Virus record (IMG/VR): IMGVR_UViG_2531839149_000016
Strand: one strand, 5' to 3'
Source: a virus
Taxonomy: Duplodnaviria; Heunggongvirae; Uroviricota; Caudoviricetes
DNA length: 26,648 nucleotides
Part shown: piece after piece, positions 17,237 to 18,196 of the stretch
Layout of the letters: the number at the start of each line of letters is the position of its first letter
Position numbering within the stretch: the stretch's first letter is position 1
The notes under the pieces: model-generated
What the model was told of the DNA's origin: nothing
Databases searched by the model: none
What the model saw: the letters and a program-made list of their open reading frames with translations, nothing else
Program-made: the position numbers and the translations under genes

Positions 17237-18196
17237 ATGATAAAAAAACCTGTGATTGGAATCAGCGGTTGTTTGGCCGGTTCTGCTGTTCGTTTTGATG
17301 GTGGTCACAAAAGAGCTGACTTTTTAATGGACAAATTAGTGGAATGGGTAACATTCAGACCAGTATGTCCGGAAATGGCTATAGGGCTGCCAGTTCCGCG
17401 TCCTGCTCTACGTCTTGTGCGCTCGATGCAAGGAAATATACGGATGTGTTTCAGCCACGACCAGAATGAGGATGTGACAGAGAGAATGACAGAGTTTAGT
17501 CGTTCTTATATGGACAAATTAAAGGATGTATCGGGGTTTGTGGTTTGTGCTAAATCTCCCAGCTGTGGCATGGAGCGCGTGCGTGTCTATGATGAAAATG
17601 GTAATCGAGGTCGTAAAGATGGAGTGGGACTATTTACGAGCACTTTGATGGAAAAGTTTTCCTGGCTACCGGTTGAAGAGGATGGGCGATTACATGATCC
17701 AGTGCTTCGTGAGAATTTTGTTGAAAGAGTTTTTGCTTTGCATGAGCTCAATCACCTTTACAAGGAGAAATTATCAAGAAGAGAGTTATTAGCTTTTCAT
17801 AGTCGTTATAAGCTTCAGTTGTTGGCGCATAGTCAGGCAGGCTATAAAGATATGGGACCATTTGTGGCTGCAATACACGAGTGGGCGGACCTTGAATCAT
17901 ACTTTGAGGTGTATCGTGATAAGCTGATGGCGATTCTCAGAAAACCTGCATCACGTAAAAATCACACGAATGTGCTGATGCATATACAGGGGGATTTTAG
18001 TAACTACTTAAGTACACGCCAGCGTAAAGAGTTGAGCGAGGTTATACTTAACTATCGTTCTGGCACATTACCTCTTCTTGCGCCGTTGACTCTGCTGAAG
18101 CATTATCTGGGTGAGTATCCTAATGATTACTTGCTTACACAAAATTACTTCGATCCCTATCCGGACGAACTGGCTCTAAGACTGATGGTAAATTAA
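17237..18196 (+). CDS. TudS (DUF523) - DUF1722 fusion protein (RudS-like putative thiouridine desulfidase)
   Basis: 319-aa ORF; N-terminal GISGCLAG…CPE…CAKSPSCG cysteines typical of DUF523/TudS Fe-S proteins; C-terminal half resembles the YbgA-type DUF1722; good RBS (AAGGGGGAG). Confidence 0.7.
   Translation: MIKKPVIGISGCLAGSAVRFDGGHKRADFLMDKLVEWVTFRPVCPEMAIGLPVPRPALRLVRSMQGNIRMCFSHDQNEDVTERMTEFSRSYMDKLKDVSGFVVCAKSPSCGMERVRVYDENGNRGRKDGVGLFTSTLMEKFSWLPVEEDGRLHDPVLRENFVERVFALHELNHLYKEKLSRRELLAFHSRYKLQLLAHSQAGYKDMGPFVAAIHEWADLESYFEVYRDKLMAILRKPASRKNHTNVLMHIQGDFSNYLSTRQRKELSEVILNYRSGTLPLLAPLTLLKHYLGEYPNDYLLTQNYFDPYPDELALRLMVN

Follow-up and report, generated by a model that had tools for sequence, protein, structure and literature searches.

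The stretch of DNA analyzed here over its whole length of 26,648 nucleotides (nt), hereafter the window, is the IMG/VR virus record IMGVR_UViG_2531839149_000016. It holds a lambdoid prophage with a DLP12-like backbone that starts at ybhC beside the integrase gene (the att-lambda side), as in Escherichia coli WCHEC020031, which is 99.8-99.9% identical to it over window positions 1..23642. Between the gene for the Q antiterminator and the lysis genes of this prophage lies rudS, which encodes a fusion of a TudS (DUF523) domain with a DUF1722 domain, an architecture named RudS by Jamontas et al., NAR 2024 (PMC11417400). The open reading frame (ORF) has an ATG start, with a good Shine-Dalgarno sequence, GGGGGAG, 6 nt upstream of it. 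The gene and the one codon in it that calls for separate discussion are:

17237..18196, + strand: rudS, a TudS (DUF523) + DUF1722 fusion of 319 amino acids (aa), a 4-thiouridine (s4U) tRNA desulfidase by homology (Pfam, alignment, structural model and a 93%-identical orthologue)
17993..17995, + strand: codon 253 of rudS, GAT (Asp) where relatives have TAT (Tyr); the T-to-G change at 17993 gives Y253D in the DUF1722 motif H249-x-x-G252-Y253 (comparison with WCHEC020031 and with homologues)

A preliminary description of this locus had already read the 319-aa protein as a TudS/DUF523-DUF1722 fusion, and the search of Pfam-A bears this out. Residues 7-149 match PF04463 ("2-thiouracil desulfurase", TudS/DUF523) with E = 1e-39 and 136 bits against a cut-off of 34.7, over the full profile (positions 1-141), and residues 192-309 match PF08349 (DUF1722) with E = 1.5e-39 and 135 bits against a cut-off of 22.5 (profile positions 1-117 of 117). 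The C-terminal half also scores 186 bits with the NCBIfam YbgA model PRK10167, which is under the equivalog cut-off of that model.

The cysteine motifs of the window protein read SGC12LAG, VC44PE46 and C104AKS107PS109C110G. Conservation was assessed in an alignment of 94 homologues (36-98% identity) that were drawn from exhaustive profile-free and word-indexed searches. The iron-sulfur (Fe-S) ligands C12, C44 and C110, all present in the window protein, are kept in 91-93 of these 94 sequences, whereas C104, the cysteine of the "CAK" motif, is variable (K in 44, M in 22, C in 13) and is therefore not expected to be a ligand. Thus, the conserved Fe-S cysteines that had been placed at GCLAG, CPE and CAKSPSCG stand for the first two motifs and for the last cysteine of the third, and not for C104. 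The catalytic set E46, R55, S107 and S109 is likewise complete in the window protein and conserved in 86-93 of the 94 homologues; these residues are the equivalents of E51, R60, S111 and S113 of RudS_KT, mapped through the constant numbering offset between RudS_KT and RudS_vir. It has been shown that mutating the Fe-S cysteines, E51, R60, S111 or S113 abolishes the activity of RudS_KT and, more generally, that mutations at the equivalents of the residues that the window protein shares with at least 90% of the homologues (C12, R19, C44, E46, R55, S107, S109 and C110) abolish or reduce it, R19 included (PMC11417400). The proposed tRNA contacts of RudS_KT (R24, Y25, N26, S243 and R244) correspond to R19, F20, D21, S239 and R240 of the window protein. 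The position of N26 is occupied by D in 71 and by N in 22 of the 94 homologues, and the Y25F variant of RudS_KT, which matches F20 here, has wild-type activity (PMC11417400).

The AlphaFold2 model of the protein, built from the 94-sequence alignment, is of high confidence (predicted local distance difference test score 96, predicted template modeling score 0.92). When it was compared with the PDB using Foldseek, the only significant matches were the TudS structures 6zw9, 6z93, 6z96 and 6z92 (probability 1.00, target template modeling score 0.72-0.77), which cover the N-terminal ~160 residues; no solved relative of the helical DUF1722 half was detected in this structure search, and TudS was also the sole relative in a sequence search of the PDB. 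Taken together, the two domains, the three cysteines, the catalytic set, the tRNA contacts and the TudS fold place the protein in the RudS family. Thus, positions 17237..18196 encode a genuine, intact RudS, an ordinary member of a known family that carries a rare, possibly damaging mutation.

The activity of this family has been established experimentally. Overexpression of six RudS genes in E. coli lowered bulk tRNA s4U 4.7- to 26-fold, and RudS_KT converts s4U to U in tRNA in vitro (PMC11417400). The viral enzyme among the six, RudS_vir, is gp66 of Escherichia phage 1H12 (YP_009909557.1), with Cys12, Cys44 and Cys110, and its overexpression reduced E. coli tRNA s4U (PMC11417400). The window protein is identical to RudS_vir at 297 of 319 positions (93%), without gaps, has the same three cysteines, and is encoded in the same slot (Q, blc on the opposite strand, rudS, AraC-like gene, holin gene); it differs from RudS_vir by 22 substitutions, including Y253D. 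Phage 1H12 is a complete phage genome of 46.7 kb, whereas the window copy resides in a defective prophage in which the AraC-like neighbor is frameshifted. The RudS of another isolated phage, IdasGreatGrand, is identical to the window protein at 316 of 319 positions. Chromosomal RudS proteins (STM1389/ORF319 of Salmonella LT2, i.e., RudS_ST, and those of Citrobacter, Klebsiella and Enterobacter) share the two domains and the catalytic residues, and RudS_ST is experimentally active (PMC11417400). Accordingly, the preliminary description is supported where it connects the TudS-DUF1722 fusion with the loss of 4-thiouridine from tRNA; this connection was already published, the 93%-identical phage copy included (PMC11417400). 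The predicted s4U desulfidase activity of the window protein is supported by its relationship to RudS_vir, and neither the RudS family nor this phage orthologue in the same slot is new: both were already known.

From the family literature, by homology, the TudS domain would hold a [4Fe-4S] cluster on Cys12, Cys44 and Cys110, and the free fourth iron would bind the thiocarbonyl sulfur of s4U at tRNA position 8 or 9. Glu46, positioned by Arg55, Ser107 and Ser109, would activate a water molecule, such that s4U would be converted to uridine and sulfide, while the DUF1722 domain would dock the tRNA near its anticodon arm. The expected outcome is less tRNA s4U and hence less s4U8-C13 cross-linking induced by ultraviolet A (UVA), less growth delay and a weaker stringent response.

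The N-terminal domain of RudS resembles TudS (DUF523Vcz, PDB 6Z92 and related structures) in fold and in the set of three cysteines with Glu and Ser residues. TudS, however, is a single-domain protein that acts on free thiouracils and on 4-thiouridine monophosphate (4-thio-UMP) and does not lower tRNA s4U, whereas RudS adds DUF1722. Alternatively, the phage RudS could be mainly a TudS-like salvage desulfidase of free 4-thiouracil and 4-thio-UMP rather than of intact tRNA. In line with this possibility, among all RudS proteins tested in a uracil-auxotroph assay, RudS_vir had the shortest lag on 4-thiouracil, and it desulfidated tRNA less for the amount of protein present; nevertheless, no RudS supported growth as TudS did, and RudS_vir lowered tRNA s4U whereas stand-alone TudS did not (PMC11417400). 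Furthermore, DUF1722, the putative tRNA-docking domain, is kept under purifying selection, with S239 and R240 conserved, and we consider a salvage function improbable.

The C-terminal half of RudS is related to YbgA of E. coli K-12 (b0707, a stand-alone DUF1722 protein encoded upstream of phr), which is 48% identical to RudS residues 164-315, including the HxxGY motif. The database labels of the protein ("YbgA family protein" in RefSeq, phrog_3275 of "unknown function" in PHROGs, and also "hypothetical protein") would be compatible with a function unrelated to s4U. These labels, however, predate or ignore the 2024 functional study, and, in contrast to RudS, YbgA has no TudS domain and alone left s4U unaffected, whereas every TudS-DUF1722 fusion tested lowered it (PMC11417400). 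With the full TudS catalytic set present in the window protein, such an unrelated function seems highly improbable to us. The current annotation hides the known RudS function and could be updated.

The genomic context of rudS consists of the following features:

15987..16364, + strand: Q antiterminator gene, Q21/933W family (Pfam PF06530, E = 2.5e-51; coordinates carried over from the WCHEC020031 RefSeq annotation)
16347..19454, no strand: variable cargo block of 3.1 kb from the end of Q to the start of the holin gene, occupied by nmpC in K-12 DLP12 (breaks of DLP12 homology, GC content)
16463..16493, + strand: intrinsic-terminator-like hairpin, candidate tR', located ~100 nt past the stop codon of Q; its GC-rich stem is 9 bp long, and a U7 run comes after it
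16520..17044, - strand: blc-like gene, transcribed away from rudS, for an outer-membrane lipoprotein of the lipocalin type (Pfam Lipocalin_2, E = 7e-44; 316 bits with the NCBIfam model of the Blc subfamily, for which the cut-off is 267)
18548..19278, + strand: AraC-family regulator gene (YdeO/GadX/HilD-like), frameshifted (Pfam HTH_18, HTH_AraC)
19466..20642, + strand: lysis cassette of S21-type holin (19466..19681), lysozyme and Rz genes (Phage_holin_2_1, E = 2e-35; Phage_lysozyme, E = 5e-45; annotations of related records)

PF06530 is the Q21/Q933W family of antiterminators (Yin et al., bioRxiv 10.1101/651190). Upstream of Q, the gene order is ybcN, ninE, ybcO, rusA and ylcG, and Q is followed by the hairpin, blc on the minus strand, rudS, the AraC-like gene, the S21-type holin gene, and the lysozyme and Rz genes. 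Homology to K-12 DLP12 breaks off within the 3' end of Q, at 16346, and picks up again 11 nt ahead of the start codon of the holin gene, at 19455, and the corresponding DLP12 interval holds nmpC on the minus strand; rudS therefore lies within an exchangeable 3.1-kb cargo block. As cargo, nmpC is similar to rudS in its position directly 3' of a Q21/933W-family Q gene and 5' of the holin gene, but nmpC, like blc, is on the opposite strand whereas rudS is on the late strand. In 933W-type phages, the same slot holds stx. Base composition also sets the cargo apart from the flanking phage genes (GC content of 43% in rudS and 32% in the AraC-like gene vs 51% in the three lysis genes). Thus, the placement of rudS in a late region by the preliminary description is right as regards the slot between Q and the lysis genes, but this prophage is devoid of head and tail genes.

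The order Q (+), blc (-), rudS (+), araC (+), holin (+), lysozyme (+) is common to phages 1H12 and IdasGreatGrand, is found also in E. coli prophages with other replication or lysis modules, and is kept in 70 of 80 IMG/VR loci, with most of the others apparently cut by contig ends. The AraC-like protein has YdeO as its best NCBIfam match, below the cut-off, and the GadX and HilD cut-offs are likewise unmet. Its gene is intact (243 aa) in 1H12, IdasGreatGrand and 61 of 80 IMG/VR copies. In the window it has lost 1 nt from a T-run near 18663, by comparison with the intact genes of 1H12 and of the contig APXF01000045.1, and it is also annotated as frameshifted in WCHEC020031 in RefSeq.

The hairpin at 16463..16493 sits where tR' would be expected and is considered a candidate for this terminator. 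Its predicted folding energy is -14.9 kcal/mol (z = -3.6), the T-run is present on the + strand only, and the hairpin is conserved in phage 1H12. It is the sole terminator-like site in 15900..19700; in particular, no terminator was detected between it and the holin gene, including after rudS. The lysis genes of lambdoid phages are expressed from pR' by Q-modified RNA polymerase. With this mode of expression, the transcript that reaches the holin gene S must cross blc in the antisense orientation and rudS and the AraC-like gene in the sense orientation. Given that rudS is on the late strand and that no terminator is detectable from the hairpin to the holin gene, it would share a transcript with the lysis genes whenever Q is active; we infer this late, Q-dependent transcription from gene order only. 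In the 192-bp spacer between blc and rudS, there are weak sigma-70-like hexamers (17068..17095, 9/12 matches), in numbers no higher than in shuffled sequence.

Taking these observations as a whole, the best explanation, which we regard as very probable, is that RudS is an s4U desulfidase carried as cargo in the slot between Q and S, with its gene presumably co-transcribed late with the lysis genes. Several points weigh against it, beginning with pR' itself, which was not located with confidence: the consensus scan gave only weak hexamers, with 13 promoter-like sites compared to 10.6 +/- 3.1 in shuffled sequence. With respect to the enzyme, all published RudS activity data come from overexpression, and RudS_vir cut s4U less than RudS_ST at comparable protein level (PMC11417400). 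With respect to the benefit for the phage, deletion of thiI mildly reduces lambda replication (PMC3296357), so that a lambdoid phage would not obviously gain from s4U loss in the dark, and any benefit of RudS is probably light-conditional or realized in the lysogen. The prophage itself is reduced as well. After Rz, only DUF1398, ylcI, Nu1 (nohD) and a tail-fiber fragment remain, and no genes for the terminase large subunit, portal, head or tail were found in the window prophage. The lambda-O-like gene (10784..11824, + strand) is split into ORFs of 192 and 146 aa, compared to a single ORF of 309 aa in WCHEC020031. Furthermore, residue 253 is Y, F or H in 88 of the 94 homologues, with D solely in the window protein, and is Y in all 80 IMG/VR prophage copies and in K-12 YbgA; the Y253D change may destabilize DUF1722 or weaken tRNA binding.

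In the O gene, a segment of ~95 nt is replaced just 3' of four 23-bp iterons (11249..11337), and the split is a further sign of a defective or hybrid prophage. With the morphogenesis genes missing and O split, the role during lytic growth that the preliminary description had allowed for cannot apply to the window copy of rudS.

The Y253D change is the sole nucleotide difference from the WCHEC020031 prophage across window positions 11454..23072 (11.6 kb), and it is non-synonymous. As a check of conservation, rather than a published criterion of the family, the aromatic residue of the H-x-x-G-Y motif is missing from the window protein. Asp at a conserved aromatic site next to an invariant glycine makes loss or reduction of function plausible. 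Thus, the window rudS might be a weakened or dead allele, in which Y253D impairs folding or tRNA docking, that is, decaying cargo in a dead prophage. This is compatible with the family assignment, given that Y253D bears on the activity of the allele and not on membership in the RudS family. Such decay would fit with the uniqueness of D253 among the 94 homologues and 80 prophage copies, the retention of Tyr even in stand-alone YbgA, the occurrence of this single, non-synonymous change in 11.6 kb otherwise shared with a near-identical prophage, and the damage nearby (frameshifted AraC-like gene, missing morphogenesis genes, split O gene). Conversely, residue 253 is outside the residues mutated in the RudS study (PMC11417400), is modeled where helix 240-252 gives way to a loop, and belongs to an ORF that is otherwise intact with every catalytic residue in place. 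Moreover, the exact D253 protein (WP_001395852.1) is recorded on only two contigs, AQCM01000019.1 (GCA_000354595.1), which is evidently the window's own, and APXF01000045.1 (GCA_000356225.2); given that the AraC-like gene is intact in the latter, the allele has persisted. On balance, a weakened or dead allele is a possibility of some substance that we nonetheless consider doubtful, and, with the defective prophage and Y253D combined, the window copy may be less active than the common Y253 allele, such as WP_000592543.1 or that of IdasGreatGrand. The gene call itself adds little, given that the enzyme family and a near-identical phage copy have been characterized; its remaining value lies in the rare Y253D allele, along with the prevalence across the species, the outdated labels and the question of why temperate coliphages keep the gene. 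In positions 1..644 of APXF01000045.1, an IS1 transposase gene is located beside a truncated blc (138 aa).

Unlike this allele, the rudS cassette is common. Of 5426 complete E. coli genomes, 1136 (21%) contain the rudS sequence, with at least 80% of it covered in 1064 of these. The 3-kb cassette was found in 1153 genomes, and 12 deposited phage genomes have it as well. In IMG/VR, rudS is present in at least 127 viral contigs, and a single-protein scan matched only close E. coli prophage relatives. E. coli has been said to lack RudS, which was taken to explain species differences in UVA growth delay (PMC11417400). This is true of the K-12 and B laboratory strains but not of the species, and the prevalence reported here thus qualifies the statement in the paper that defined the family. 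Several complete genomes carry an annotated IS1 inside their 3-kb match, flanked by two aligned pieces.

Between the window and 1H12 alleles, the ratio of non-synonymous to synonymous divergence (dN/dS) is 0.11 for rudS, at a synonymous divergence (dS) of 0.30, and 0.06 for blc, and the rudS ORF is intact in 80 of 80 IMG/VR copies. Judging from these substitution patterns, the phage rudS alleles are under purifying selection. The closest RudS proteins outside Escherichia are chromosomal (Citrobacter, Klebsiella, Enterobacter, Serratia, Salmonella and Pectobacterium), all of them 319 aa long and 70-76% identical to the window protein. Between phage and chromosomal rudS, dS is saturated, and the phage gene has a GC content of 43% and a GC content at third codon positions (GC3) of 39%, compared to 54-60% and 62-73%, respectively, in the chromosomal genes. 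With dS saturated and such a gap in GC3, phage rudS was not recently captured from any of the sampled chromosomes.

In the Citrobacter and Klebsiella loci examined (positions 110..6960), rudS ends a conserved same-strand cluster of nine genes, which encode SnoaL, SDR, flavin adenine dinucleotide (FAD)-dependent amine oxidase, DUF1365, a cyclopropane-fatty-acid (CFA)-synthase-like methyltransferase, DUF2878, a 175-aa protein, DUF3833 and RudS, whereas the phage copy is outside such a cluster, behind Q. The cluster resembles one for lipid modification or for photo-oxidative stress. Its makeup fits the reported connection of RudS to loci for light and photo-oxidative stress, and chromosomal RudS copies have been linked to MerR/LitR light control (PMC11417400). 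The nine-gene cluster is apparently absent from E. coli, and K-12 keeps the ybgA-phr pair. Co-capture of blc and rudS from the chromosomal operon was considered and rejected: the neighbors of Citrobacter and Klebsiella rudS, the 175-aa ORF and the DUF3833 gene, are Blc-sized, but in Pfam they give a weak chalcone-isomerase-like match and DUF3833, respectively, and they are unlike phage Blc (BLASTP E > 1).

If late transcription of rudS is as we propose, phage-borne RudS might be an adaptive function of host takeover or of lysogenic conversion that erases host tRNA s4U as the late proteins are made. We offer this only tentatively and consider it rather unlikely; the shorter UVA growth delay and lower cross-linking that have been reported come from overexpressed RudS_KT, not from the phage enzyme (PMC11417400). 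Were it true, a prophage induced by sunlight (through the SOS response triggered by ultraviolet light) would escape UVA cross-linking of tRNA, translation arrest and the stringent response, and leaky expression in lysogens would confer resistance to near-UV growth delay on the carriers, about one fifth of E. coli strains. The prophage would then give back to E. coli a function of which its chromosome retains only stand-alone YbgA. Given that 21% of E. coli genomes carry rudS, strain variation in the near-UV response and in tRNA s4U may track prophage content. In the literature searched, there was no paper on why temperate coliphages conserve a tRNA eraser beside their lysis genes, and the reason for which a temperate phage would keep, under purifying selection, a tRNA de-modification enzyme in this position is an experimentally approachable question.

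Some other observations concern the cassette and the prophage at large. No tRNA genes or Rfam families, looked for by analogy with the slot in Stx phages, were detected in the window, and a PADLOC search for anti-phage defense systems gave no match for RudS, Blc or the AraC-like protein. Two leads were followed and discarded: the literature on lipocalin and prophages turned out to be work on host lipocalin-2 that is unrelated to the cassette, and orf10 of phage phiv142-3 is unrelated to it as well, with the orf10 primer sequence absent from the window.

In one E. coli record, there is a 403-aa protein in which ~92% of RudS is joined to a GGDEF domain. It may have arisen through a deletion between rudS and the diguanylate cyclase gene that WCHEC020031 has at its right prophage border (26343..27674).

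The left flank of the window is ybhC (1..1284), whereas the right flank is ydfJ (25365..26648)/ydfI, which in related genomes borders a Qin-type prophage located elsewhere. The junction between the two flanks maps at about 23474..23642, and in no complete E. coli genome is more than ~80% of 20600..26648 matched at a single location. The ybhC/ydfJ junction is either the result of inversion or recombination of two prophage remnants within tail-fiber sequence or a mis-join of the draft contig AQCM01000019.1.

In the immunity region, 7458..9034 (- strand), beside the gene for an S24/cI-like repressor (9154..9909, - strand), encodes a DUF3037 protein (280 aa) and a HipA_2-type kinase (250 aa), both labeled as of unknown function in PHROGs. 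This pair occupies a rexAB-like position and matches the PADLOC candidate defense system PDC-M66 (M66B, E = 4e-16; M66A, E = 6e-15).

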